This document shows positions 6,410-22,887 of a stretch of DNA of 64,000 nt, piece by piece; positions within the stretch are counted from its first letter, which is position 1; the number at the start of each line of letters is the position of its first letter. Source of the stretch: a virus. Lineage: Duplodnaviria > Caudoviricetes. The stretch lies in the IMG/VR virus record IMGVR_UViG_3300033175_000001, positions 1-64,000 of that record; one strand, written 5' to 3'. A program made the position numbers and the translations under genes. The notes under the pieces were generated by a model. It was not told where the DNA came from, did not search any database, and worked only from the letters and a program-made list of their open reading frames with translations.

Positions 6410-7147
6410 CTACTCCGTTATCAGTTCAAAACCTTCTTTACCGGGAGTACCAATACTCTTTACTCCGAATCCTCTCCTATCTGCTTCGTCTGTAAACTTC
6501 GTCCAGTCGAAACCCTGCCCAGGACACGCCTTATCGTACCTGGCAGCCGTCGAAGCTGAATTATAATTCCATACGCTCCACCTATGCCCAACCACCCGTT
6601 TCATTGACGGATATATTGGAAGGAGATGGTCAAAGTACAACTTAAACAAAGACTCATACTGAGCATCCGTATACGGATCACGATTCGATCTCGAAGGATT
6701 CAATAACTCAGTCCCTATCTGATACCTTGCTTTCGATCCTGCAGTAGCATGATGTACCCAATAAGAAGGGGAAATTATCTCAGTAATCAAACCATCTGCC
6801 TCACCCTTCGCTCCCCTGCCTATAGCATAATGAAAAAGACCTATACCTTTCAGATAATTCGCTGCAAGTTCCCCGCCAACCATCCATTTAATAAGTCCAT
6901 TAACAGTCATCCCTCCAGCCGTGCCATGCACTACAAAGTCAGTCGGACTGACATTCCTGACTTTATTTATCCATCCGGCCTGATACTTCGTTCTTACCGA
7001 CATATCCACAACGATATCCACAGGTTGTGTAGAAATTACCTCTTCAGGCTCAATATCCCCGGTCTGTTCCCGGGAAGCCTGCCTCTGCGCCCTGACATTC
7101 TGCCAGTTCATTAAAGTAAATATTAAGTCTGATATCTTTTGCCACAT
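6410..7147 (-). CDS. Endolysin, N-acetylmuramoyl-L-alanine amidase (Amidase_2)
   Basis: VVHGTAG, FHYAIG, IGTEL, TDAQYESL, VGHR, KACPG motifs. Confidence 0.85.
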   Translation of the reverse strand: MWQKISDLIFTLMNWQNVRAQRQASREQTGDIEPEEVISTQPVDIVVDMSVRTKYQAGWINKVRNVSPTDFVVHGTAGGMTVNGLIKWMVGGELAANYLKGIGLFHYAIGRGAKGEADGLITEIISPSYWVHHATAGSKARYQIGTELLNPSRSNRDPYTDAQYESLFKLYFDHLLPIYPSMKRVVGHRWSVWNYNSASTAARYDKACPGQGFDWTKFTDEADRRGFGVKSIGTPGKEGFELITE

Positions 7148-8451: not shown

Positions 8452-8606
8452 ACTCGACTCCTCAGTAATAATCTCCTCGATAAAGCTGAAGCATACCTCA
8501 AAACATCCCGGGCAAACTTCTTAATCGCTCCAAGGGCTCCGAGGCCCCTTGCCATAAACTGATTATTTAAACTCTGCCCTCTCGCTACGCTCCATGCCTT
8601 CTTCAT
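8448..8606 (-). CDS. 52-aa basic protein
   Basis: Manual translation MKKAWSVARGQSLNNQFMARGLGALG...LLLRSRV; ATGA overlaps on both sides. Confidence 0.6.
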   Translation of the reverse strand: MKKAWSVARGQSLNNQFMARGLGALGAIKKFARDVLRYASALSRRLLLRSRV

Positions 8607-9166
8607 GCCCTTTCACACATCACTATATTCTCAATCGTCGGTAAGCCGGATTCATTAAAACAATGCCACCTGGCTACCTCAGTAACATTATCCGCCCTGT
8701 ACATGATCAATAAATTAGGAGGCACCAACTCCCACTTGCCTCCCTCAATATCCTTAATAAATTGCACGTCTGCTCTTACAGCATCAACCTTACTGGAAAC
8801 TGCCTGCAGCTGCCCGCCAATAGCAGTATCTTTATTGCCAGAAATCCCCAAAGCATCCCTTATTTGATTCTTTTCACTCTCCGTCCAACCATACGCCTCA
8901 ACATCAGAAAAGAACACCTGGCGTGCATCCTTCTTTGGGTGCGAAGGGCAATCAATGACGAACAGATAAGTACCGACTAAATCACTATCCTCATAATTAT
9001 AGAAGTATATACCCTTACCGTCCCCTCCATTGAGTTCGGAAAGGGTATACACTCCCTGCTTTACTCCGTTAGGCTTGTAAACAACCATACGGACATCTAA
9101 AAGCCCTGACTCGAAGCCACGAGCAATATAATTTATCCTGTACGGTTGCCCAACAAATGCCATCAA
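8603..9166 (-). CDS. Virion protein with Ig-like N-terminal domain and short coiled coil
   Basis: N-terminus paralogous to the ORFs at 9177-10406 and 10425-10724. Confidence 0.55.
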   Translation of the reverse strand: MMAFVGQPYRINYIARGFESGLLDVRMVVYKPNGVKQGVYTLSELNGGDGKGIYFYNYEDSDLVGTYLFVIDCPSHPKKDARQVFFSDVEAYGWTESEKNQIRDALGISGNKDTAIGGQLQAVSSKVDAVRADVQFIKDIEGGKWELVPPNLLIMYRADNVTEVARWHCFNESGLPTIENIVMCERA

Positions 9167-9176
9167 AATTCACTCC

Positions 9177-10406
9177 TTACACAGCTATCCCGCCGGGCTG
9201 TACGGCTTCATAGATATTCTTTAGGTTATCATCTGAAGTCCATCCCGCACCTTTAATTGCTGTGAGGTCAGCCTCAACACCATCTGTATTGCCTGCAATA
9301 GTATCAAGCAAGGTCTTTAATGCTGCCAGACCATAAGTAGCATTTGACAACAGGGAGTTATTGCTCGACACCAGCGTTCTTATCGCTGCCAGACCATTCG
9401 TACCATCATCTATATCAGCCTGCACTGCATCAATAAGAGCCTTCAACGCGCCAAGACCATCAGTAGAATTATCCAGATCAGCCTGAATACCATCAACAAC
9501 ACCGTCAACGATATCCACTTTCGCTTCAATCGTATTCAGTTTCGTTGCGATATCTGAAGACTCCGCCGCTACCCTGGAAGCCCTATCCTGGTACTTTGTA
9601 ACGCTGTCCTCATTATAATCAAAACTGAAAATCAGATCCTCTGCTGCAGCAGCGTCCGATACTGCGTAGGTAAAGCTAAACCTACCTTCACTCACTCTTG
9701 TAAGCCACTTCTTTGACCCGAATGTATCCGCACTCAGCCCGCCGAGATTCCCTGACCTATCAGTGCCTCCGCTATTGGCTACAGATACAGCCACATAAGC
9801 ATCAGTATTCTGATTATCCGGGTCTTCCATATTACCGGCTGCGTCGAATATATTTACATAAACCTTATAAGTATTCGTCCCCGTATCCGGTACGATCATC
9901 ACCTGCTGAAGTGATGTACTGAACAGTGTATTATTCTGAATACTCTGAACAGCAGAGGCAACCGCATCAATCAACGTTTTCAGGGCAGCGTTACCGTGGT
10001 TTACGTTTGCCACAATTCCTTCAATATCATCCACATTTCCATCGATAACATCAATCTTGCCATCAATGGTTGTAAGATTTGAAAGCGTTGTGTCGAGCAT
10101 TGCATCCAGCTTCTCAAGAACAGTATCATTGAGCGTATCAGGATCAACAATCTGTATCTTATCAATAGCCGGAGCAGACTTAGATGTCGAATCAATCTTA
10201 AACCCCCAAACTCCAAGAGCCAGCCCAGTAGTATTAAAATCGGCATAATACACGCCGCTTGTACCCATCTCAGTCATAGCAACAGCAGATTGGGCCGCTC
10301 CGCTCGGATTATAAGGAATTGCCTGAACATCCGACAAACCTGAACTAAAATTCTTCGCAGAATAAAGGAGCCTGTAGGCATCCCCTTGCTTTATAACCTT
10401 AAACAT
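9177..10406 (-). CDS. Virion fibre-like protein: Ig-like domains plus GLxALKxLID helical repeats
   Basis: Repeats HGNAALKTLID, DGLGALKALID, NGLAAIRTLVS, YGLAALKTLLD. Confidence 0.55.
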   Translation of the reverse strand: MFKVIKQGDAYRLLYSAKNFSSGLSDVQAIPYNPSGAAQSAVAMTEMGTSGVYYADFNTTGLALGVWGFKIDSTSKSAPAIDKIQIVDPDTLNDTVLEKLDAMLDTTLSNLTTIDGKIDVIDGNVDDIEGIVANVNHGNAALKTLIDAVASAVQSIQNNTLFSTSLQQVMIVPDTGTNTYKVYVNIFDAAGNMEDPDNQNTDAYVAVSVANSGGTDRSGNLGGLSADTFGSKKWLTRVSEGRFSFTYAVSDAAAAEDLIFSFDYNEDSVTKYQDRASRVAAESSDIATKLNTIEAKVDIVDGVVDGIQADLDNSTDGLGALKALIDAVQADIDDGTNGLAAIRTLVSSNNSLLSNATYGLAALKTLLDTIAGNTDGVEADLTAIKGAGWTSDDNLKNIYEAVQPGGIAV

Positions 10407-12565: not shown

Positions 12566-12847
12566 TTATACTACCCTCAATGATACTGGAAGCTGATCTC
12601 CACATTCGCAAAAGCCAGTCATTTCTCGAACTTCTCGTTCCACATTCTTCGTATTCATGCGGAGCAGCGAATACCGATTTAGCCGCATCGACTGTAGCCC
12701 TGCCCAACGCCGCACCTGCATCTTCAGGCGTATAAAAACATTTATCAAAGAGAAATAGCAAAGCAGTCGCCAGGAGGGCTTTAGCTCTTTCCATCTGCGA
12801 ACCTCCACATTATTTATATCCTGGCGAACCGCTCTGCTTGTACTCAT
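12566..12847 (-). CDS. Hypothetical protein
   Basis: Start coupled to the upstream stop at 12847; ends just before the next Shine-Dalgarno. Confidence 0.45.
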   Translation of the reverse strand: MSTSRAVRQDINNVEVRRWKELKPSWRLLCYFSLINVFIRLKMQVRRWAGLQSMRLNRYSLLRMNTKNVEREVREMTGFCECGDQLPVSLRVV

Positions 12848-13212
12848 TATTTTACCGCCTTTTCTTTCTCAGCCTTTATCCTTGGAGCCCAATATGGATA
12901 TTTAGCTGAAACATCTACAAGCCACCCCTTCTGCAGACCATCATATTCTTCTGGGGTCACTTCCACTTTCTGTTTCTGTTTACCATCTGAAATAACGATG
13001 TAATAATCGACATGGATAAAGTGGGTACAATTAACCGGAGTATACCCTCTTGGATCGCTAAACCCGCAATCCCCAGATGTAAGATGCTCAATATCGCATC
13101 CTTTCTCGATTATACGCCCTTCTAAAATCTTGGGCTTACCCGCTTCCCTCAAAGAAGCACACCCCAAACTGAACAACGCCACAACTGCCAACATCACAAA
13201 GATACGCTTCAT
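12847..13212 (-). CDS. Lipoprotein
   Basis: MKRIFVMLAVVALFSLG-C lipobox; AGGAGG Shine-Dalgarno. Confidence 0.75.
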   Translation of the reverse strand: MKRIFVMLAVVALFSLGCASLREAGKPKILEGRIIEKGCDIEHLTSGDCGFSDPRGYTPVNCTHFIHVDYYIVISDGKQKQKVEVTPEEYDGLQKGWLVDVSAKYPYWAPRIKAEKEKAVK

Positions 13213-13229: not shown

Positions 13230-13258
13230 ACAATATTTTATAATCTATGCTAAATCAA
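13230..13258 (-). promoter_or_regulatory. Possible sigma70 promoter TTGATT-N17-TATTGT for the lipoprotein gene
   Basis: Hexamers at 13258-13253 and 13235-13230; only a consensus-like match. Confidence 0.3.
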
Positions 13259-13905
13259 GCATTAAAGTATTCCCGAGTTAATTTGACTGTAGCAGGCTCT
13301 ACCATTCCTACCCATGACTCATCACCCGCTGCCAGCTTGCTGCGAATATCTGTTCCTGATATTCCTTTTATTTCGTCAGTAACTACCACTTCTTCCACAT
13401 TATATCCTACTCCTCGTCCATAATAAATTCCTTCTATATCCGGCATTATGACTATCGTTCCTCTTATATTCTCCGAAGTCATCCACGCCTTTATTAACTC
13501 TGCCCTATCAACGGCAGGGATATCATCGAACTTGGTATCTCTTACTAAAATAAGAGCTGGCAGATTCTTGCTCTCCAGCACCTTCTTAACTATTGCAGTA
13601 TGCCCCTGATGCAAAGGGCACCACCTTCCTATAAAAGCAATGTGCGGTTCCTGGGCATCCACATTTGAAAAGAACTTCAGGTCGTACTTACGAATGTCAA
13701 ATATCCGAGCAAACCAATAATGGTAATTATAGTATAAAAACGTATTCAGAATATTCCATACTATCGAAGTTCCAATAGCCCACTTCCACTGCCCAGTCAG
13801 GAAATAAAAGAATATCGACTGAATAATAACGACATGCAACCTATAAACTATTCCACTGCCAATCAGCAGCATTGATTTAATAGGCATCAATTTTAGCTTT
13901 CTCAT
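13255..13905 (-). CDS. DUF2061-like membrane domain fused to a HIGH-motif (cytidylyltransferase-like) nucleotidyltransferase; putative minimal sulfate adenylyltransferase
   Basis: N-terminal YRLHVVIIQ...LYYNYHYWF; FIGRWCPLHQGH; YYGRGVGY; ISGTDIR; adjacent to APS kinase. Confidence 0.6.
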   Translation of the reverse strand: MRKLKLMPIKSMLLIGSGIVYRLHVVIIQSIFFYFLTGQWKWAIGTSIVWNILNTFLYYNYHYWFARIFDIRKYDLKFFSNVDAQEPHIAFIGRWCPLHQGHTAIVKKVLESKNLPALILVRDTKFDDIPAVDRAELIKAWMTSENIRGTIVIMPDIEGIYYGRGVGYNVEEVVVTDEIKGISGTDIRSKLAAGDESWVGMVEPATVKLTREYFNA

Positions 13906-14390
13906 CTGTTTATCCTCTCTGTTATAAAATCTACAAGCTGAAGAACACTTTCTTCAACTGATTGCTTTTCAGTATCAATTACCAGATCGCACAGAACTGG
14001 CTCTTCATACGGGCTTGAAATTCCTGTAAACTCAGGAATCTCCCCTTTAATTGCTTTTGCGTACATCCCCTTTGTATCCCGGTCTATACACTTATCTAAA
14101 GAAGACTTTACCCAAACGATGGAACAGTTTGGAATCTCCTCTTTCGCTCTCCTTCGTTCATCCTCATACGGAGAAATGAATGAAGTCACCACATGATGAT
14201 TTAACTTTGAAAGCAACTTACATAGCTCCCTCAGCCTCCTCATATTCTCACGGCGATCCTCTTCAGAGAACCCTAAATCCGAACACAACCCTTTTCTCAA
14301 GACATCTCCATCTATATTGACAAACCCTTCAAGCTCATCTGCCAAAGTAGATTTCCCGGCTCCAGACAAACCTGTCATCCATATAACCAT
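13902..14390 (-). CDS. cysC: Adenylyl-sulfate (APS) kinase
   Basis: WMTGLSGAGKST, DGDVLRKGL, LGFSEEDRRENMRR, SFISPY, RDTKGMY, FTGISSPYEEP; start reassigned to ATG 14390. Confidence 0.9.
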   Translation of the reverse strand: MVIWMTGLSGAGKSTLADELEGFVNIDGDVLRKGLCSDLGFSEEDRRENMRRLRELCKLLSKLNHHVVTSFISPYEDERRRAKEEIPNCSIVWVKSSLDKCIDRDTKGMYAKAIKGEIPEFTGISSPYEEPVLCDLVIDTEKQSVEESVLQLVDFITERINR

Positions 14391-14394
14391 TATC

Positions 14395-15108
14395 TCACCT
14401 CTGTAGCGGCTTCTTAAAGTACTTAAACCCTCTATAAATATCTGAACTAATATCAAAATCAACCTTTACCGATTTACGCGACCGCAAGCAAGGCAAAGCA
14501 TCTCCATCCAATCCGCTACCCCAAAATTCATGGGCCTTTGAAATAAACCTGTAGCATTTATTCTGAAATGGTTGAGAGCACCAGTACAAACACCCTGCAT
14601 TTTTAAATAAAATAATTCGAGACTTATCAGTTAGCCTATTTAAAAAATCAATATCTTCGGTTCTACGCGGGTGTAATGTAACGAAATCATATAATTCCAA
14701 TGCATTATCAATGCTTTCAATATCATCTATTCCTTTTATAACACTTGCTATCAACTTAACTCCGGGAAAGTCCTCTTTCAGCCTCATCGCCAATAAATCA
14801 TTTGTCACAGTAACTTTATTGCCTCGAAAAATAAATTCTGCTATTACCGACTTAAATTTTTTGTACCACTCCGGTTCAAAATAATCACTGGTTAGCGTAA
14901 CAGTAAACGCCACGCCAATACTCGCCAGCAAATCCACTTGTTTGAATGAATATACCTGAGAGGCAGAAAATATTCTTCCTCCATACAAAGGAGTGAACTC
15001 TTCGTGAAATCCAAATACACTCGTAACAACACCAAAATGATCGTCTGCCAATTCGTGAATTTTTGCCAGATCTTTCATTGGTCTCGAAGTTACGGAATAC
15101 TCCTTCAT
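14395..15108 (-). CDS. U32-peptidase-like Fe-S TIM-barrel protein
   Basis: LYGGR, VTNDLLA...FPGVKLIAS, NAGCLYWC...KC...PC (4 Cys); start at ATGA overlap 15108. Confidence 0.55.
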   Translation of the reverse strand: MKEYSVTSRPMKDLAKIHELADDHFGVVTSVFGFHEEFTPLYGGRIFSASQVYSFKQVDLLASIGVAFTVTLTSDYFEPEWYKKFKSVIAEFIFRGNKVTVTNDLLAMRLKEDFPGVKLIASVIKGIDDIESIDNALELYDFVTLHPRRTEDIDFLNRLTDKSRIILFKNAGCLYWCSQPFQNKCYRFISKAHEFWGSGLDGDALPCLRSRKSVKVDFDISSDIYRGFKYFKKPLQR

Positions 15109-15893
15109 CTCAAGTTCAGGTAACATGCGGGAACCTCCATTACGCTTGGATGGTAGAAGCCATGCCCTGAAACTCCGTCCACCTCAGTAAAGCACTCACC
15201 ATGGTCAGAACAGATGAATACGTTTGCAGGCCGAGGTATTACGTCTATAACCTCTAAAATATGGCTATCCACATACTCAAAAGCATCCACCTGACTCTTG
15301 ATATAATAACTCGGGTAATTACCCTTCTCATCAGGTTCTGCTTTTAATCGATATGGTCTATGAGTGCTGGCTATATTCAAAAATAAAAATACAAGAGATT
15401 TCATATCAAGCGTCTTTAATAACTGTATCTGTCTTTCAAAGCTATTTGGAATAACCGGAGAAAACTCATCCGCATAGTAGAATTCTTTAAAATACATACT
15501 CCATAAATCTCTCGATGAATAAAATGAGCTATTAAACCAATCAACTCCGCCAACCCCAATAGTACGATATCCTTGTGCCGCAAAACTCCCAGGCACGCTG
15601 GTATCTGTTTCCTGTAATGAGAACTCAGCATTACGAGTATTGTTCCCGTACCTAAATAAACCATGCGAATGCTTAAATGGAGGATCAGCTTTAAACGAAG
15701 ATGGAAATTTACCGCCAGTAAACATTGATACATGAGCGGGCAACGTATAAGTTCCATGAGCACAGACTTTCTCCCAGCCATTTCCTATCCGCTGGTGTTC
15801 TGCAAATAACTTCTCAAAATTGGGTGAATTAGCAATTTGGGTAACATCGTACCGCAAAGAATCGATAGTTATTAAAGCAAAATTTATCACCAC
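15105..15893 (-). CDS. Alkaline-phosphatase-superfamily (sulfatase/NPP-like, STM4013-like) enzyme with Thr at the nucleophile position
   Basis: ITIDSLRYD, GTYTLPAHVSMFTG, IGVGGVDWF, STHRPY, CSDHGE, GHG. Confidence 0.75.
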   Translation of the reverse strand: MVINFALITIDSLRYDVTQIANSPNFEKLFAEHQRIGNGWEKVCAHGTYTLPAHVSMFTGGKFPSSFKADPPFKHSHGLFRYGNNTRNAEFSLQETDTSVPGSFAAQGYRTIGVGGVDWFNSSFYSSRDLWSMYFKEFYYADEFSPVIPNSFERQIQLLKTLDMKSLVFLFLNIASTHRPYRLKAEPDEKGNYPSYYIKSQVDAFEYVDSHILEVIDVIPRPANVFICSDHGECFTEVDGVSGHGFYHPSVMEVPACYLNLR

Positions 15894-16420
15894 TTAACCT
15901 CCGCAAGCTCCTGCTCAGTCGATGCACTTATTATACTCTCTTCAAGAGAATGCTTCTTTTGCAACAAGCCTACCTGGTAATCTTCCATCTCCACTAAAAG
16001 CGCCTGTAATTTTTCCAGGGTCACTATAGCTTTTACATACTTACCTTTATAGCTTATGCTTTCTTCAGGATTACGCTGAGCCCAAGCTATTAAATTCTTA
16101 ACATTCTGAATATCATTCTTATCCCCTCCCCGACATTCAATAGTAATACCCTCTACTGGATTTGTAAAAGATATTCCATCATCTACTTCAACGGTAACCA
16201 CCGAAGAAACAAATGCTCCGTCTTTAAACTCATTCAAAAACCCATACTCAACTTCATTAAGTTTTAATTCGCGTAACACTTCTAAATCGATTCCGGCACA
16301 ATCATCTAAAACCTTTATTAACTTGAAGTTATTTAGTATAAACGACGGAATATTTGAACTATCTTCTATGAAGATATTCGAATATTCGCCTGTTTGTTTG
16401 TTCAAAGCGTGGACATTCAT
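15887..16420 (-). CDS. DUF4376-like tail fibre assembly protein
   Basis: C-terminal DIQNV...LEKLQAL...LLQKKHSLEESIISASTEQELAEVKW pattern; GAGG Shine-Dalgarno. Confidence 0.6.
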   Translation of the reverse strand: MNVHALNKQTGEYSNIFIEDSSNIPSFILNNFKLIKVLDDCAGIDLEVLRELKLNEVEYGFLNEFKDGAFVSSVVTVEVDDGISFTNPVEGITIECRGGDKNDIQNVKNLIAWAQRNPEESISYKGKYVKAIVTLEKLQALLVEMEDYQVGLLQKKHSLEESIISASTEQELAEVKW

Positions 16421-17015
16421 CTTCTACCTCCAAATCACCTGAAAAATTGTTTACGTTCCCCCATACTGGAGCATCACTACACCCGCACCTACAAATATTT
16501 CCATTCGGCTTAACGAATATATGCCAATCGGCGCAGTCTAAATCTCTGCCCTCTTCGGCTGCCCTTCCTGCGTTTAACATATATGGAAATGTAAACGTCC
16601 TACCTGAAAATAGCTCAAGCACTTCAGCATCAATATCTTCATGAAACCTATCTCTTGCAATGAATACAGCCAGTTTAGGCGAAGATACAGCTGCCAAAGA
16701 TTGCATCGCCGCAACTGCTTTGCCGTTAGTCTGAACAATAACCTTCTCTAAAGAAGAAGCTATTGCTATAGTTACAAAATCAATGAAACTGGGATGAATC
16801 GAAGGTTCCCCGCCTGAAATTATTACTTCTGTAAAACCTTCCTGTAAAAATAACTGAATTACTGATAAAAAGGTTTCCTGCGTCATAAATACTGAACTTT
16901 GAGATGCTGCAGGAGCAGATAAATTGCAGCACTCACACTGCATATTGCAGTCTTCGGTTAATTGAACGTAGACTTGCTTACTTCTCAGAACCCTACGTTG
17001 ACTTACTTCTCTCAT
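16359..17015 (-). CDS. Radical SAM protein with Twitch/SPASM-like tail
   Basis: CNMQCECC, SGGEP, QTNG, C...FVKPNGNICRCGC. Confidence 0.85.
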   Translation of the reverse strand: MREVSQRRVLRSKQVYVQLTEDCNMQCECCNLSAPAASQSSVFMTQETFLSVIQLFLQEGFTEVIISGGEPSIHPSFIDFVTIAIASSLEKVIVQTNGKAVAAMQSLAAVSSPKLAVFIARDRFHEDIDAEVLELFSGRTFTFPYMLNAGRAAEEGRDLDCADWHIFVKPNGNICRCGCSDAPVWGNVNNFSGDLEVEDECPRFEQTNRRIFEYLHRR

Positions 17016-17024
17016 TTCGCCCTC

Positions 17025-17669
17025 CTAATACTGAACTCTATCTGGACGGAGTTTAACGCCAGACTCTATCTTCGCTCTCAACGATGGTGACTTGCAACCT
17101 GTAAATACTAAAAGCCGTGGGTCTACCGTAAAAATATTACCTATTGAGGGTGCGTCTAAGCAACCGCAGCCCCGCACATCACCGTCAGGTTTAATATAAA
17201 TATTAGGTGAAATGCAAGCGTACGCATTGCCGAAATCTTTTCCCCTGCCAGTCCTCCCTACAAAATGAGAAGTTAATAAATGCCCCTCATAAGCCTTATA
17301 TACCTCGTCGCTTACGCACTCATGGTACCTATCATAACTTACCATTGCCCGCAACTTTCCTTCTGAAGAGTCCGCCAACTTCTTTAATTTTAAAGCTACT
17401 TCGGTTATTTTACCGTTTATCGCTATAAGAATATACTTAAAATCCCTCTGTAATATTAACTCCGTCCATTCCAGAAAATTCTCATGCATTGTAGGCTCCC
17501 CGCCAGTTAAAACTACCCTGTCTGGATTTATACTTTCGAGGACATCCAAACATTTTACATAAGTTTTAAAATCCATAGGACGTTCGTACCCTACCTCCCC
17601 TTCGACTGTTGAATTCTGCGAACAAAAGGCACAGTGCATATTACATTGTGTTAATAATTGAATGTGCAT
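17025..17669 (-). CDS. Radical SAM protein with Twitch/SPASM-like tail, paralog of the neighbour
   Basis: CNMHCAFC, TGGEP, C...YIKPDGDVRGCGC. Confidence 0.85.
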   Translation of the reverse strand: MHIQLLTQCNMHCAFCSQNSTVEGEVGYERPMDFKTYVKCLDVLESINPDRVVLTGGEPTMHENFLEWTELILQRDFKYILIAINGKITEVALKLKKLADSSEGKLRAMVSYDRYHECVSDEVYKAYEGHLLTSHFVGRTGRGKDFGNAYACISPNIYIKPDGDVRGCGCLDAPSIGNIFTVDPRLLVFTGCKSPSLRAKIESGVKLRPDRVQY

Positions 17670-17870
17670 CTAAAATACCTTCGCCCTTCCAGCTTTTAAA
17701 TCCTCCATTATCTGCCTTGCCTCCTTCTCCGTATTACCGTCTGGTTCAAATGCCTCTTCGGAAATAATGAACTGATCCAGAATAAACTGAGGAATATTAT
17801 TCCTGTCTTCTACAATAATGGCATTCCTTCTTCCTGTAGTTTTATGGGTTACATAAATAGTGTCCATCAA
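17670..17870 (-). CDS. 66-aa peptide paralogous to the N-terminus of the DUF4376 protein
   Basis: KTTGRRNAIIVEDRNNIPQFILDQF versus KQTGEYSNIFIEDSSNIPSFILNNF. Confidence 0.7.
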   Translation of the reverse strand: MMDTIYVTHKTTGRRNAIIVEDRNNIPQFILDQFIISEEAFEPDGNTEKEARQIMEDLKAGRAKVF

Positions 17871-18475
17871 GCCTCCAATCTACGCTTAGCTGAAATATAA
17901 TAATCTTCCACAAGCTCAAACCCGCAATACGAACATCCTGCCTTCTTAAATGCCAGTAACGAAGAGCCTGAACCTACATGAGTATCAAGTATATTAAACT
18001 CCCTCCTCGCACAGATAGATAATACCCACTCATATAATGCCTCCGGTTTCTGCATTGGGTGAATGAAATCTCTACCTATAAAATCTTCGCCCCATTTCTG
18101 CCTCACATTTGGATCATTTGGATCAAAAACTCTTACGCAACCTCTAAAAGAAGTCCACGCCATCTCAGCATTATGAAACTTAGAATTAAAATTCTTCCTC
18201 CAAATAAGCCACGCTCCAGTTGGCTGGAGATAATCTGTAAAATAATTGCCTCCCCAAATAACCTGATTCTGACTTACTCTAAACAACTCATCAAAATACT
18301 CTTTGCTCGGACGAGGTTGCTTAAAACATTCAAGATTCAATCCAGTAAAAATCTTTTCCTCTCTGGATAAGTCTCTATCCTCCCCCCACGGCGGATCAAC
18401 TATTGCCAGATCGAAGAATTTATCTGGAAATTCTTTCATGCCTTCAATACAATCTATATTCCTAAAAGTGTGCAT
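17867..18475 (-). CDS. DNA methyltransferase, N4-C/N6-A beta class
   Basis: DCIEGM, DLAIVDPPW, HPMQKP, ILDTHVGSGSS, GFEL; true start ATG 18475 overlaps the fibre stop (TAATG). Confidence 0.88.
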   Translation of the reverse strand: MHTFRNIDCIEGMKEFPDKFFDLAIVDPPWGEDRDLSREEKIFTGLNLECFKQPRPSKEYFDELFRVSQNQVIWGGNYFTDYLQPTGAWLIWRKNFNSKFHNAEMAWTSFRGCVRVFDPNDPNVRQKWGEDFIGRDFIHPMQKPEALYEWVLSICARREFNILDTHVGSGSSLLAFKKAGCSYCGFELVEDYYISAKRRLEA

Positions 18476-21400
18476 TACCAGTATATCCTTATTACGCCGT
18501 TTCCGCCTGCGCCACCAGCAGCTCCGTTGACCCAGCCAGAAGTAGCCTTGCAGCCTCCTGCACCGGCTCCGCCGCCTCCATTTGCACCTACTCCACCTAC
18601 CGCTCCAGGACTGCCCGCAGACGCAGAACCCGCACCTCCGATTGCGACAGAAGCATCCCAAGGACTTGCGCCTCCATTGCCTCCATTACCTCCATTGCCT
18701 CCATATATCCCTCGCTTGCCTCCCTTACCTCCATTTACTCCTCCACCATCTGCGCCATCCGCCGAGTCTTGGACTCCCGCTAACCCTTCCTGGCCTCTCA
18801 ACCCTCCCACATAAGTTCCGCCTCCAGGAGTATCGTTCGGCACTGGATTTCCATTTGAACCGGCTCCAGGCATGCCTACACCACCAAAAAATGCATTGCC
18901 TCCTCCAGAGGGTTCTGTTGTGTAGCCAGCAGTTTCGGCAGCAGATGGCGCTGCTTGAGCTCCACCACCTCCTCCTCCGCCATAATTATAATCAGTGTAG
19001 TAGTCTGCGTCATACTTGCCAGCACCTCCACCAGCACCTCCACCAGCACCTCCTGTAGGCACAGAAGTAGTATCTTCCACCACATACGTCTTACCGCCAG
19101 CATACGAACGACAAGTTCTTGGGTACGAAGGTGCATATACGCCTGTGGAAGTACCTCCTGCGCCAATTACAATATTTATTAACGTACCTATTCCAATACC
19201 AAAACTCGGTATTCTTAAATATTTGACTCCTGCGCCGCCTCCAGCTCCACCACCTCCTGTGCAGTTAGTAGAAGTACTTTGCCCTGGACCTCCAGATCCC
19301 CCGGCTCCTCCGCCTCCAATAAGCAAGAACCCAAAGTGCCTACCAACTTCTGTAAAAGTAAAGGATCCAGACGCAAACATATCATGATGCCCATTCTGCC
19401 CTTCTGGGCATGTGAAGTCCACCCCGTTACAGGCAGCCGTATAAGTTAACCCAGAGCCTGCCCTTATCTTAAAGCTCGCTCCGGTAGCCCCTTTAATCGT
19501 AATATAATAATCCCATACGCCTCCTGGAGTCGTAGTATTATTTACAACATTCCAATTTTTCACTTCTAAGGGAAAAGTAACATTGCGCGGGCCATCAACT
19601 TCTCCTATTAAAACTATTGTTCCATTAGCTGCCTCTTCTGGAGACAACACAACATCTCCAGTAGATACATCAATATCTACTGAACCCAAAAATGAGTTAA
19701 CGTAAGTCTTTACCGCCCGCTCGGTTGGAATATTATCATCACTATTATCTCCAAGTGAACCATCTGTGGATACTTTTGGCCCAAAAACAACCTCATCCTC
19801 CGAACCAGACACCTTAACTAACCTCTCCCCTTCGCCAACGTAAGAAGAGGGTGTATCGCTTAACCCAGTAAAATTACCTGGAGCAGCATCTCCAAATTCA
19901 AGCCCAGACTCATCCCCTTTCACCTTAACAATCTTCCCGCCCTGAGCTGAATAAGTATCAGGAGTATCCAAAAGACCGGCAAAAGTATCCTCTTCCTCGA
20001 TATCCAAAGCAAGGATATTGAAAAGCTCTTCAATATACGCAGGAAGAGTATCCCATGGATTTGGAGCGTCATCATCTGTTACATAAATATTCCCCAAATA
20101 CTTCTTCATCATTTTAATAGAAGTCGCATCAAGGGAAGCCTGGCCATAGACCAGCCCTGCGAATCTCTCTAAATTATAATCTCTCGGAGTCCCTGCCCAG
20201 GTATCTCCAAAAAGAGTATGCTCGGTTGGATAACTGGCTCCCTCTGCCGTTACATAAATATCACAGCACTCTCCATCGAGATAAGCCTGTGGAAGCTGTG
20301 TGCCAGGATTCCCTATTATTGGAAATAACCCTTTTGAATGCCCGTATGCTTTTATCTCCTGAAAATCGGCAACCCGGTTACCGTCATTCGGCATCTCATC
20401 TAAAAATATACCGTCAATACCTGGATACAATGAAAGCCAGGTATCCATCTCAGCTTTAATATCCACGACGGACTTCTCGCCAACGCCCGAATACCCCGTT
20501 GCGATGTACCCAAGAGTCTTTCCCTTTGCACCCTGAAGAAGCGTAATTGCCACGGTATAATTCCCGTCGGTAACTGTACCCGGCCCACTCGCAGGATTTA
20601 ATATTGCCATTACAGGAACTTTTGGATACTTCCTCATGGCTTTTATCAGCTCACCGTAAGGAGTTGTGGTGGTATCCCAGGTATCGTTAACCCGAAGATC
20701 ATTCGGATAAATATACATCGGGATAAGCATCCCTGTATTCTTATTCAAATCCTTATTAAGAAAATCTACTTCATTTGCTTTATCATGGAATTCAAGCCCA
20801 GACTCATCACTCTTTACACGAACTTCCTGTAAACCCTTTCCAGAATAAGACGCAGGCGCATCCGTAAGCTCAGTAAACGCTGCTGCCATATCCCCAAATT
20901 CGAGCCCGTCTTCCCCAGGCTTAACCATTACTGCTTTTCCAGCCTGCCCTGTATAATCTGATGGGGTATCTTCCATATCCAGAAAATCATTGTCCCTGAA
21001 CTCCAGCCCATCTTCGGCAGCCTTTACATTTACTTTCTTTCCTCCCTGCCCAGAATAGGATGATGGGACGTCTTCAAGGTCTGTAAATACATCAGTCTCA
21101 GGGTCGCCAAACTCCAAGCCATCCTCGGTTGCTTTTACCTTTACTACCTTATTTGCATGCCCTGTATAAGAAGCAGGAACATCCTGAAGTTCTGTAAAAT
21201 GATCAGGAACATCTGCAAATTCAATTCCGGTTTCATCCATCTTGACAACCACCATCTTGCCCGCCTCTCCGGTATAGGAAGAAGGTGCATCTACAAGATT
21301 AAGGAACCCAAAAACATCCAGAAAATCCCTCAGCGACCGTGTTGAATTATTGTACCTCGGAACAAACTTATCCGATATTTTATCGATGGGCATTTTAAAA

Positions 21401-22887
21401 TTGAAGTTTGCAAACCCCCAGTCATCCAAAGAATACCCTGAAGGAAGTTTTATCCGCCCTGTGACGGCATCTATCCCTATATAAGTACCATATTCCCAAC
21501 TCGTCCAGACACCATCATCTGAAAAATCCACAGGAATAATGTCCAGCTCCCCTCGTTCATCCGGAGCCAATCCGCCGATAATGTTATCGTCCGCAGGCAC
21601 ACGAAGCACAGGCATTGAAGCCCCTGCTCCGTTGAGAATATCAATAACGTCATTTGATTTATACAACCCGGGAGTAGGCTTAAAATATAACTGGAAATAC
21701 GCCTCTTCCATTGACCCGCTTATATTTGAATAGATAAACGGCTGGTTCACATAAGACCCATCTGCCACATAAATATGATAATGATATGCGGCTCCCGGAG
21801 TAAAAATATCTATTTCATGTTCAACATGGAACCATCCATCAACAGATAAATCTCCAAAGGATACCAGTCGATTAAGAATCTCAGTATCCGTATCATCATG
21901 AATTATTACCCTCAACTGGGCAAATCCTGATCCAACAGTATGACATTTAAACCGTGACCATTTATGCGTAGTCGAATTCAATCCCACCGGAAAAGTAAAC
22001 GGCATCTTATCCGCCGCCAACTCGGATAACGAAGTCTTTAGCCCCACAGAGAGGTCGGCACCCGTAACTCTAAAAGCCGCTTTCCTGCTCGTTGCATATT
22101 CCTGGTCAATATCGAACCGTGAAAGGATTGACCCATCCTCTTTACAAAAGAAAGTATATGTGTCCACCAACGGTTCAGAAATAAGTTTCCCTCTACGCGA
22201 ATCCATCTGATGAATACTGCTAAAACCACCTCGGAACTTAAATACCCGGCTTATTATACCAGATATTGAATTTAACTTATCCTGAACTGACTGAGACAGC
22301 CAGCTTTCGATAATAGACTTCTCCTCTATAGATATGTTCCCAAAATTAAAATACGATACCGGAGACCTTGACCCGACATCCACAGAAATAATATTTCCAG
22401 AAACGACCATGAAACTACCCACACATAGCTCCGTATCCAGCGTAGGCACACTCTGATCCACAAAAAGCTCAAGCGCATCAATGGTCTCCCAATAATATGT
22501 TTCTGAAACGAATACCTTCTGCCTTTGTGAACCGTAATCACTCTCCGCATATTTATATTTTACGTAGTACGTCCCATCGCCTGCAGAAATATCAGGAGTA
22601 TAGTTCGGAATAACTGCTCGGTACACCGGCCTGAGTATTCCCTTCTCATCAAATACAAATCCTTTAACTTCCGGAATAGAAATCTGAGTACCTGACACCA
22701 GGGCAAGATTCGATACGCCATAAAATAAACTTGGTACATTCTTTACCAGGTCATTTATTAAATCTCCGAGCTTACCATCCAGGTAATCCATATCCTGAAT
22801 ATAATCTTCCGGAAACTGTTGATCTTTATCTTTTAACGGAATAAGTCCATTAAGTTTCAGAGTGGTTCGTTGCCTATTCTGTGGCAT
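18475..22887 (-). CDS. Long tail fibre: baseplate-anchoring N-terminus, seven about 35-aa repeats, spherulin-4 (GH135) domain, Gly-rich C-terminal domain
   Basis: Follows the wedge genes; FxxLxDxPxSYxG...VKxxEDGLEF repeats; LIPMYIYP, ILNPASGPG, GYIATGY, DGIFLDEM, GNPG; Gly-rich tail. Confidence 0.85.
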   Translation of the reverse strand: MPQNRQRTTLKLNGLIPLKDKDQQFPEDYIQDMDYLDGKLGDLINDLVKNVPSLFYGVSNLALVSGTQISIPEVKGFVFDEKGILRPVYRAVIPNYTPDISAGDGTYYVKYKYAESDYGSQRQKVFVSETYYWETIDALELFVDQSVPTLDTELCVGSFMVVSGNIISVDVGSRSPVSYFNFGNISIEEKSIIESWLSQSVQDKLNSISGIISRVFKFRGGFSSIHQMDSRRGKLISEPLVDTYTFFCKEDGSILSRFDIDQEYATSRKAAFRVTGADLSVGLKTSLSELAADKMPFTFPVGLNSTTHKWSRFKCHTVGSGFAQLRVIIHDDTDTEILNRLVSFGDLSVDGWFHVEHEIDIFTPGAAYHYHIYVADGSYVNQPFIYSNISGSMEEAYFQLYFKPTPGLYKSNDVIDILNGAGASMPVLRVPADDNIIGGLAPDERGELDIIPVDFSDDGVWTSWEYGTYIGIDAVTGRIKLPSGYSLDDWGFANFNFKMPIDKISDKFVPRYNNSTRSLRDFLDVFGFLNLVDAPSSYTGEAGKMVVVKMDETGIEFADVPDHFTELQDVPASYTGHANKVVKVKATEDGLEFGDPETDVFTDLEDVPSSYSGQGGKKVNVKAAEDGLEFRDNDFLDMEDTPSDYTGQAGKAVMVKPGEDGLEFGDMAAAFTELTDAPASYSGKGLQEVRVKSDESGLEFHDKANEVDFLNKDLNKNTGMLIPMYIYPNDLRVNDTWDTTTTPYGELIKAMRKYPKVPVMAILNPASGPGTVTDGNYTVAITLLQGAKGKTLGYIATGYSGVGEKSVVDIKAEMDTWLSLYPGIDGIFLDEMPNDGNRVADFQEIKAYGHSKGLFPIIGNPGTQLPQAYLDGECCDIYVTAEGASYPTEHTLFGDTWAGTPRDYNLERFAGLVYGQASLDATSIKMMKKYLGNIYVTDDDAPNPWDTLPAYIEELFNILALDIEEEDTFAGLLDTPDTYSAQGGKIVKVKGDESGLEFGDAAPGNFTGLSDTPSSYVGEGERLVKVSGSEDEVVFGPKVSTDGSLGDNSDDNIPTERAVKTYVNSFLGSVDIDVSTGDVVLSPEEAANGTIVLIGEVDGPRNVTFPLEVKNWNVVNNTTTPGGVWDYYITIKGATGASFKIRAGSGLTYTAACNGVDFTCPEGQNGHHDMFASGSFTFTEVGRHFGFLLIGGGGAGGSGGPGQSTSTNCTGGGGAGGGAGVKYLRIPSFGIGIGTLINIVIGAGGTSTGVYAPSYPRTCRSYAGGKTYVVEDTTSVPTGGAGGGAGGGAGKYDADYYTDYNYGGGGGGGAQAAPSAAETAGYTTEPSGGGNAFFGGVGMPGAGSNGNPVPNDTPGGGTYVGGLRGQEGLAGVQDSADGADGGGVNGGKGGKRGIYGGNGGNGGNGGASPWDASVAIGGAGSASAGSPGAVGGVGANGGGGAGAGGCKATSGWVNGAAGGAGGNGVIRIYW
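19783..19983 (-). repeat. Two coding repeats of the tail fibre after the GH135 domain
   Basis: FAGLLDTPDTYSAQGGKIVKVKGDESGLEF and FTGLSDTPSSYVGEGERLVKVSGSEDEVVF. Confidence 0.8.
20788..21306 (-). repeat. Five coding repeats of the tail fibre before the GH135 domain
   Basis: For example FTELQDVPASYTGHANKVVKVKATEDGLEF and FTDLEDVPSSYSGQGGKKVNVKAAEDGLEF. Confidence 0.85.

Follow-up and report, generated by a model that had tools for sequence, protein, structure and literature searches.

Behind the tail-fibre gene of an uncultured phage (Duplodnaviria; Caudoviricetes) lies a run of genes that we tentatively read, with a probability of roughly 0.45, as a late, fibre-coupled operon for oxygen-independent tailoring, whose products would oxidise and sulfate the tip of the fibre. 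The DNA analysed, hereafter the window, corresponds to bases 1-64000 of the linear, 77,324-bp IMG/VR record IMGVR_UViG_3300033175_000001, whose completeness is estimated at 80%; the stretch was found in sludge metagenomes, possibly from one campaign. In particular, the genes in question code for two radical S-adenosylmethionine (SAM) proteins (rSAM1 and rSAM2), a chaperone-like protein, an alkaline phosphatase (AP)-superfamily enzyme, a protein resembling the U32 family, an adenosine 5′-phosphosulfate (APS) kinase and a nucleotidyltransferase. The proposal derives from sequence comparison, structural modelling and the company that these genes keep in other genomes.

A U32-like protein family associated with sulfation and phage fibres

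The 243-aa U32-like protein is matched by no Pfam, PHROG or NCBIfam model, and the U32 peptidase model PF01136 leaves it unmatched even at E values up to 10. Its family becomes visible in an exhaustive HMMER search, which retrieved 219 relatives. Residues R15, N103, S128, D147 and K168 are conserved in this family together with a YGGR motif, and the four cysteines C179, C183, C191 and C213 are conserved in 54 of its sequences. An AlphaFold model computed with the family alignment as input reached a predicted local distance difference test score (pLDDT) of 89.6, and Foldseek matched it to the U32 protein Mk0906 (PDB 5D88; E 2e-9, template modelling (TM) score 0.70). Comparison with the same structure by VIA gave a Z score of 18.9 and a root-mean-square deviation of 3.3 Å over 221 aligned residues, with other TIM barrels reaching Z scores of at most 11.3. 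The model thus indicates that the protein has the U32 fold, its membership holding at the level of the fold. An initial annotation of the window, made from the letters alone, had described a U32-like protein with four cysteines; fold and cysteines bear this out, while the PF01136 match is missing and the cysteine spacing differs from that of published U32 proteins. The protein is thus a putative Fe-S enzyme, possibly a hydroxylase.

The most informative relatives are the long ones. Among the 150 best relatives, about 22 have lengths of 440-680 aa, and eight of the ten long homologues that were scanned carry a Sulfotransfer_1, _2 or _3 domain, at either end of the protein; of the other two, one carries DUF4915 and one TPR repeats. 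The same association is found in phages. Specifically, two viral scans and one metagenome scan yielded 15 independent phage or phage-like loci with a member of the family, of which 10 have a sulfotransferase beside the U32-like gene or fused to it and 6 have an APS kinase or APS kinase-like gene next to it. These fusions and neighbourhoods support a tie between the U32-like family and sulfation.

The position of the family in phage genomes is equally recurrent. Within 5 kb upstream of the U32-like gene, 10 of the 15 loci hold fibre genes (Mtd_N, Peptidase_S74), a tail-assembly chaperone gene (Phage_tail_APC) or glycine-rich open reading frames (ORFs). Glycine-rich ORFs (34-44% Gly per 100 aa) are found ahead of the U32-like gene in the window and at the phage loci L095/L102, L103, L113 and L120, the one of L103 being a member of Pfam Gly_rich_2; the background for such ORFs is 0/107 in the other viral loci, collected for the AP enzyme, and 3/1238 in cellular loci. 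In addition, 2-oxoglutarate (2OG) oxygenases of the PKHD type or resembling prolyl 4-hydroxylases belong to the modules of L114-L116 and L095, and both kinds of enzyme are recognizable among the neighbours of the U32-like gene of L115. In bacteria, a fused U32-like/sulfotransferase protein is found in a lasso-peptide cluster, and the fused form also adjoins a subtilase gene and a thioredoxin-like gene. Taken together, the comparative data point to a conserved phage module made up of fibre tip, chaperone, U32-like protein and sulfation enzymes. Its substrates would be peptides or proteins, because the family is accompanied by prolyl-hydroxylase-like neighbours, a lasso-peptide cluster and glycine-rich tips.

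The initial annotation had proposed a synteny search as a check. The U32-like gene is found beside fibre-type genes and APS kinase genes at the frequencies just given; none of the other loci compared repeats the whole gene set of the cassette, radical SAM genes included.

A few arrangements seen among the relatives merit mention in their own right. At L097:828-2341, two tandem U32-like paralogues are followed by a sulfotransferase gene, an arrangement that recalls the UbiU/UbiV heterodimer. DUF4915 is fused to the U32-like domain in protein P0122, or is encoded directly after a fused U32-like/sulfotransferase gene (L099:7941-10701). The lasso cluster (L100:4779-11804) comprises a 51-aa precursor-like ORF ending in Ser, a cyclase resembling asparagine synthase, a transglutaminase-like B2 protein and an ABC exporter, as well as a P-loop protein that resembles HPr kinase by eye only; by its gene content, it is a candidate cluster for a sulfated lasso peptide.

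Sulfate activation

The cassette carries its own APS kinase gene, cysC. The product scores 172.5 bits against TIGR00455 (cut-off 138.7) and 155.2 bits against PF01583, and has the P-loop GLSGAGKST; by these sequence features it is a bona fide APS kinase, as the initial annotation had it.

The adjoining 216-aa protein is less readily classified. Its two hydrophobic helices and its HxGH/ISGT motifs agree with the DUF2061-nucleotidyltransferase architecture previously assigned to it, while the DUF2061 match itself is weak (E 0.11), the domain being carried (PF09834) by the homologue P0271. The best Pfam match of the nucleotidyltransferase part is to ATP-sulfurylase (PF01747), at 20.8 bits against a cut-off of 24.3 and over the HxxH region only, and TIGR00339 gives 15.9 bits against a cut-off of 323. 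As to genomic context, however, fusion to an APS kinase (PF01583) is seen in 11 of 40 homologues, phrog_10255 spans both CysC and the nucleotidyltransferase, and the two genes overlap by 4 nt in the window. For these reasons, the protein is a candidate minimal ATP sulfurylase.

Three Pfam models, and 12 sulfotransferase queries at E values up to 10, detected no sulfotransferase in the 77.3-kb record, which is an estimated 80% complete, and the record likewise holds no 2OG oxygenase.

The AP-superfamily enzyme

Between the chaperone-like gene and the U32-like gene lies that of an AP-superfamily enzyme of the sulfatase/nucleotide pyrophosphatase-phosphodiesterase (NPP) fold. It matches Sulfatase (32.7 bits) and, over residues 7-60 only, Phosphodiest (PF01663, 27.2 bits; cut-off 23), in line with the threonine-type sulfatase/NPP enzyme of the initial annotation. 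Its profile matches sulfatases, ENPP proteins (ENPP4/5 included) and phosphoethanolamine transferases in the PDB, and with 144.7 bits it stays under the cut-off of 250 set for NF038075 (STM4013). Residues D11, T48, T50, N173, H178, D230, H231 and H244, metal ligands included, are invariant in 38 homologues. T50 aligns with the formylglycine-forming cysteine of sulfatases (C-x-P-x-R). Nevertheless, the motif around it is T-x-P-x-H, so that the enzyme has the threonine nucleophile and metal ligands of NPP enzymes and, with an invariant Thr, lacks the C/S-x-P-x-R motif of formylglycine (S1) sulfatases.

In other genomes, this enzyme too is found near sulfation genes. Of the 12 closest cellular loci, 6 have a sulfotransferase and 3 have CysC at a distance of no more than 10 kb. 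Two of the five other phages that encode the enzyme have an APS kinase, whose gene in one of them belongs to a glycan cluster, and in phage L004 the AP enzyme gene adjoins a U32-like gene within a fibre cluster. Since sulfotransferases, CysC/APS kinase and U32-like genes are its neighbours, the enzyme would be tied to chemistry related to 3′-phosphoadenosine 5′-phosphosulfate (PAPS). The possibility that it is a plain replacement of a sulfotransferase was set aside, as it usually sits beside one elsewhere.

The glycan cluster mentioned above belongs to phage G002 (176 kb; L094:972-10933) and extends over about 10 kb. Besides the APS kinase gene, it contains genes for two B12-binding radical SAM proteins, for glycosyltransferases of families GT10 (two), GT2, GT25 and GT1, for UDP-galactopyranose mutase (Glf) and for an epimerase.

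The radical SAM pair

The two radical SAM proteins exceed the cut-off of the Pfam Radical_SAM model (PF04055, 29.5 bits), carry CX3CX2C and are paralogous (27% identity, E 6e-31), as had been noticed at first reading. They also have in common a C-terminal C..KP[DN]G..CGC..GN motif, which in rSAM2 gives a weak hhalign match to the C-terminus of the STM4011 cluster (P 6e-4, probability 29%). The AlphaFold2 model of rSAM2 (pLDDT 51) is unusable. Against the PDB, both proteins yielded matches to the generic core only, and a word-indexed protein search returned no homologues of rSAM1.

The fibre and its small companions

The glycine content of the 1470-aa fibre peaks at 42% per 100-aa window near residue 1365, and no other ORF among the 69 in the window behaves likewise. 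The Spherulin4 domain of the same protein, which may constitute a virion-borne glycanase, is inserted midway along the fibre, with copies of a repeat of about 35 aa on either side.

Two small proteins accompany the fibre. The 177-aa protein was initially taken for a DUF4376 fibre-assembly protein; its Atlas look-alikes are indeed DUF4376 clusters (feature score 0.92, structure TM 0.63), with no match to Pfam, DUF4376 (PF14301) included. Its first 40 or so residues are paralogous to the 66-aa protein, as seen from a motif in the translations. As a lead only, this motif resembles small proteins of the XkdX type, which are frequent after fibre genes.

Organization and setting of the gene run

Coding in the window is almost wholly on the minus strand, and the GC skew is strongly negative. 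Ten translationally coupled genes run from the 1470-aa fibre to position 13255, with junctions between -62 and +9 nt and a GGAGG-like (Shine-Dalgarno-like) site at every start. Coordinates are collected in the table. All the genes of the overlapping cassette that the initial annotation had placed behind the glycine-rich fibre are present on this strand. The cassette does not follow the fibre tip directly, as had been stated: it belongs to the same coupled run, and a DNA methyltransferase gene, omitted from that description, comes first. The ATG of this gene overlaps the stop codon of the fibre gene, and its product is probably unrelated cargo. In phage L007, a homologous methyltransferase gene lies about 1.5 kb upstream of that of the AP-superfamily enzyme.

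Features of the fibre-cassette region (window positions; all on the minus strand)
Feature	Positions	Strand	Basis
Tail fibre, 1470 aa: repeat array, Spherulin4 domain, Gly-rich C-terminal tip	18475-22887	-	ORF; Spherulin4 1e-33
Spherulin4 (GH135-like) domain, fibre residues 720-957	about 20017-20730	-	match 1e-33
Gly-rich C-terminal tip, proposed substrate, about residues 1170-1470	18478-19380	-	composition, GGGGxGG-type motifs
DNA N6/N4 methyltransferase, first gene after fibre	17867-18475	-	PF01555 35.2 bits; phrog_67 6.7e-27
66-aa protein	17670-17870	-	N-terminus paralogous to that of the 177-aa protein; no family matches
rSAM1, 214 aa	17025-17669	-	PF04055 43.0 bits; CX3CX2C; C-terminal KPDG..CGC..GN (SPASM/twitch-like)
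rSAM2, 218 aa	16359-17015	-	PF04055 35.5 bits, Fer4_12 30.3 bits; rSAM1-type architecture
177-aa protein, probable fibre-assembly chaperone (DUF4376-like)	15887-16420	-	Atlas look-alikes
AP-superfamily enzyme, 262 aa, Thr nucleophile T50 (T-L-P-A-H), STM4013-related	15105-15893	-	family matches
U32-like TIM-barrel protein, 243 aa, CX3CX7CX21C, conserved module core	14395-15126	-	fold, conservation, synteny
APS kinase (CysC)	13902-14390; ORF could extend to TTG at 14462	-	PF01583 1.7e-45, TIGR00455
216-aa protein: two N-terminal hydrophobic helices (membrane domain) and HxGH/ISGT nucleotidyltransferase	13255-13905	-	weak DUF2061

The junctions across the genes of the AP enzyme, the U32-like protein, CysC and the nucleotidyltransferase measure -22, +4 and -4 nt. 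Scans for promoters and terminators gave results at chance level, and no RNA run is among the sequencing runs listed for the stretch. The GC content of the cassette genes (13255-18475) is 0.37-0.41, compared with 0.46 for the fibre gene and 0.43-0.47 for the downstream genes, which is consistent with later acquisition.

A gap of 42 nt on the 3′ side separates the cassette from the gene at 12847-13212 (minus strand), whose 121-aa product has a signal peptide, the hydrophobic stretch of which is followed by a Cys, matches no family and is probably a lipoprotein. Further downstream, two more fibre-like proteins (409 and 187 aa) with an N-terminal motif in common are encoded at 8603-10406 (minus strand), the larger one having coiled-coil repeats and a weak DUF7310 match, and an amidase gene is located at 6410-7147. 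With the fibre gene upstream and the fibre-like genes and amidase downstream, the cassette thus lies within the late structural module.

With respect to the phage as a whole, no close relative was found in INPHARED or IMG/VR, and viral contigs scanned with single proteins (the AP enzyme, the 243-aa protein, rSAM2 and a 545-aa tail protein) returned no matches. The identical AP enzyme is also encoded on a contig of 86,102 bp, a longer version of that of this phage.

Proposed pathway and alternative explanations

According to the preferred reading, the membrane-anchored nucleotidyltransferase and CysC would convert sulfate into APS and then into PAPS. The target of the U32-like Fe-S enzyme would be the glycine-rich receptor-binding tip or a different fibre protein, held by the 177-aa chaperone; the enzyme's step would most simply be an oxygen-independent oxidation or hydroxylation by which the acceptor is created or presented. 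The SPASM/twitch-like radical SAM pair would take the place occupied in other phages by oxygen-dependent, prolyl-hydroxylase-like oxygenases. As for the AP enzyme, it might pass on the sulfo or phospho group by way of a covalent threonine intermediate, in lieu of a sulfotransferase, or it might process PAPS or 3′-phosphoadenosine 5′-phosphate (PAP) for a sulfotransferase supplied by the host or encoded in the 20% of the genome that is missing. The receptor-binding tip would thereby become negatively charged and chemically altered.

A more far-reaching version is quite improbable. It would see three new activities in an oxygen-independent sulfation of a virion protein: the U32-like protein and the minimal radical SAM proteins oxidising a polyglycine-type tip, the threonine-type AP enzyme founding a new class of PAPS-dependent sulfotransferases that operate through sulfo-threonine, and the domain of about 135 aa being a new minimal ATP sulfurylase.

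Several observations count against the proposed tailoring of the fibre. With no sulfotransferase in the record, the key transfer step is without an assigned enzyme; moreover, the AP enzyme elsewhere usually accompanies a sulfotransferase instead of replacing it, and its closest relatives (36-45% identity) reside in O-antigen-type clusters together with genes for Wzm/Wzt, glycosyltransferases and methyltransferases, an argument for a glycan substrate. Known U32 enzymes act on RNA bases and quinones rather than on proteins (PMC6599085; 10.1101/587956). In L095 and L114-L116, the U32-like gene and 2OG oxygenases occur together; therefore, the U32-like protein is not simply the anaerobic substitute of such oxygenases, and this candidate role was rejected. 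No relatives of the radical SAM pair were detected, so that its role is assigned from position alone. The fibre tip gave neither a Pfam match to Gly_rich_2 (PF21722) nor a BLASTP alignment to the member at L103, their agreement being limited to composition and short motifs. Finally, the methyltransferase gene between fibre and cassette and the low GC of the latter may denote a hot spot for cargo, in which case adjacency to the fibre would be uninformative.

The serious rival, unlikely as we hold it to be, is a glycan target, namely sulfation or phospho-modification of a surface polysaccharide of the host or of a sugar attached to the virion; in the former case, the purpose might be receptor masking, superinfection exclusion or an aid to release. 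The genomic company of the AP enzyme speaks for it, since the O-antigen-type clusters of its relatives often include sulfotransferases or CysC and the CysC of phage G002 is embedded in a glycan cluster. So do the glycanase-like Spherulin4 domain of the fibre, which implies that the host has a relevant exopolysaccharide, and the membrane anchor of the nucleotidyltransferase. However, the cassette has neither a glycosyltransferase nor a sugar-nucleotide gene, none of its enzymes has a signal peptide with which to reach a surface glycan, and the contexts of the U32-like family indicate peptides or proteins. An improbable explanation would dispense with a common pathway altogether and regard the genes as a mosaic of unrelated cargo (methyltransferase, CysC and ATP-sulfurylase-like helpers of sulfur assimilation, sundry Fe-S enzymes) accumulated in a recombination hot spot behind the fibre. 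The methyltransferase at the head of the run, the GC below that of the flanks, the lack of detected radical SAM relatives and the uniqueness of the gene set are as such a mosaic would have them, and the N-terminal motif that recurs in the 66-aa and 177-aa proteins stands on both sides of the radical SAM pair, as a recombination scar would. Tight joining of the last four genes is at odds with it, as is the recurrence of their combinations: U32-like and APS kinase genes pair independently at 6 phage loci, AP enzyme and U32-like genes in L004, the AP enzyme gene and CysC or sulfotransferase genes at many loci, and the nucleotidyltransferase is fused to APS kinase.

The remaining two alternatives are far less probable. 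A nucleic-acid target, either phage DNA or host RNA, would receive a U32-style base hydroxylation followed by esterification, in concert with the neighbouring methyltransferase; this is very unlikely. The characterized U32 enzymes TrhP and RlhA do hydroxylate RNA pyrimidines (PMC6599085) and a DNA methyltransferase gene heads the run, but the 243-aa family is U32-like at the level of the fold only, with no PF01136 match, and its neighbours elsewhere include no nucleic-acid enzymes, its partners being protein hydroxylases, sulfotransferases, fibre tips and a lasso cluster. In addition, no sulfated nucleobase is known. Least probable of all is a small peptide that is ribosomally synthesized and modified post-translationally (RiPP), for which the radical SAM pair would mature the 66-aa protein or the N-terminus of the 177-aa protein as a leader-bearing precursor, with the sulfation genes tailoring the peptide. 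Radical SAM enzymes of the SPASM/twitch kind typically mature peptides (according to the NCBIfam matches), the motif common to the two putative precursors flanks the pair, and a fused U32-like/sulfotransferase protein belongs to the lasso cluster. Against this, the 177-aa protein resembles DUF4376 chaperones over most of its length, the cassette lacks a peptidase, a transporter and a RiPP recognition element, and the motif recalls, as a lead, the XkdX-type proteins found behind fibres.

In conclusion, the anaerobic tailoring of the fibre put forward in the initial annotation is the preferred reading and is supported in part, by the ties of the U32-like family to sulfation, fibre modules and peptides, and is weakened by the glycan alternative and by the co-occurrence of U32-like and 2OG enzymes.

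Implications

Receptor-binding fibre tips decide the host range of phages. If phages sulfate or oxidise these tips, host range would be partly chemical and invisible in the sequence of the fibre, with consequences for host prediction and phage engineering. The module composed of glycine-rich tip, chaperone, U32-like protein, sulfotransferase and APS kinase is widespread according to the comparative data, and no description of a U32-like/sulfotransferase/fibre module of this kind was found in the literature searched. The variant of the window looks adapted to low oxygen, and the presence of 2OG oxygenases in other phages where the window has radical SAM genes fits the idea of an anaerobic counterpart.

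Further leads concern the single families. The link of the U32-like family with sulfotransferases would extend U32 chemistry towards proteins and RiPPs, AP-superfamily enzymes of the STM4013 type would be connected with PAPS metabolism, and the small nucleotidyltransferase is repeatedly fused to APS kinase.

Comparison with known systems

Systems that combine PAPS supply with a sulfotransferase include CysDN/CysC, NodPQ-NodH and RaxPQ-RaxST, the last of which sulfates the peptide RaxX. As in these systems, an APS kinase and a sulfate adenylyltransferase, here a candidate, are encoded beside enzymes that use the product. In contrast to CysDN and canonical Sat, the adenylyltransferase candidate of the phage is an HxGH/ISxT domain of about 135 aa with a membrane anchor, and no sulfotransferase is encoded.

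The bacterial STM4011-STM4015 cassette (NF038073-NF038076) resembles that of the phage in having a threonine-type AP-superfamily hydrolase beside two radical SAM genes. Its layout comprises a gene of unassigned function, an ATP-grasp gene, a haloacid dehalogenase (HAD) gene, the hydrolase gene and the two radical SAM genes, and its clade is more distant. The phage has no ATP-grasp, HAD or STM4015 partner, its radical SAM proteins are much shorter and bear no specific kinship to those of the cassette, and its AP enzyme falls in a clade other than that of canonical STM4013, one accompanied by sulfotransferases and CysC. Among the models for the partner proteins, NF038074 and NF038076 gave no match and NF038073 a generic match of 12.8 bits only. 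Membership in the canonical cassette was rejected accordingly, the scores being under the cut-offs and the partner genes absent.

A radical SAM enzyme, possibly of the SPASM type, associated with a sulfatase-fold protein also recalls the anaerobic sulfatase-maturating enzyme (anSME) and its sulfatase, and the nucleophile position is aligned. Here, however, the radical SAM proteins are of about 215 aa with a partial SPASM/twitch motif, and the nucleophile is an invariant Thr. Maturation of this Thr in the manner of anSME was considered and discarded, as most members of the AP enzyme family lack radical SAM neighbours.

Among U32 proteins, UbiU/UbiV, TrhP, RlhA and Mk0906 have the same TIM-barrel fold as the 243-aa protein, and the four-cysteine motif at the C-terminal end of the barrel is placed like the 4Fe-4S sites of UbiU/UbiV (10.1101/587956). 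The U32 hydroxylases UbiU/UbiV, TrhP and RlhA work independently of oxygen; hydroxylation of this kind depends on prephenate, and the principle of an assay for it is described in PMC10990095. The spacing is CX3CX7CX21C in the phage protein, as opposed to the published CX6CX15CX3-4C, and the partners of its family are sulfotransferases, protein hydroxylases and fibre tips, whereas known U32 proteins serve tRNA, rRNA and quinone pathways.

Regarding the fibre, the receptor-binding tip of cyanophage Pam3 gp24 is glycine-rich with GGGGxGG-type motifs (PMC9608196). The Pam3 gp24/gp25 (PDB 7YPX) and S16 gp38 systems are similar to the window in the fibre end of about 40% Gly, in the GGGGxGG motifs and in the gene for a Tfa/DUF4376-type chaperone that comes next. 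They differ from it in that the window has enzyme genes interleaved with the chaperone genes, and the likeness is one of composition and motifs, with no sequence homology found. No modification appears to have been reported for glycine-rich tips of the Pam3/S16 kind.

Lastly, phages L095 and L113-L116 carry modules composed of glycine-rich tip, chaperone, 2OG oxygenases, U32-like protein, sulfotransferase and APS kinase. The window is without the 2OG oxygenases and the sulfotransferase and has instead two radical SAM proteins, the AP enzyme and the ATP-sulfurylase candidate; what it has in common with these phages is the U32-like core, the position behind the fibre and the APS kinase.

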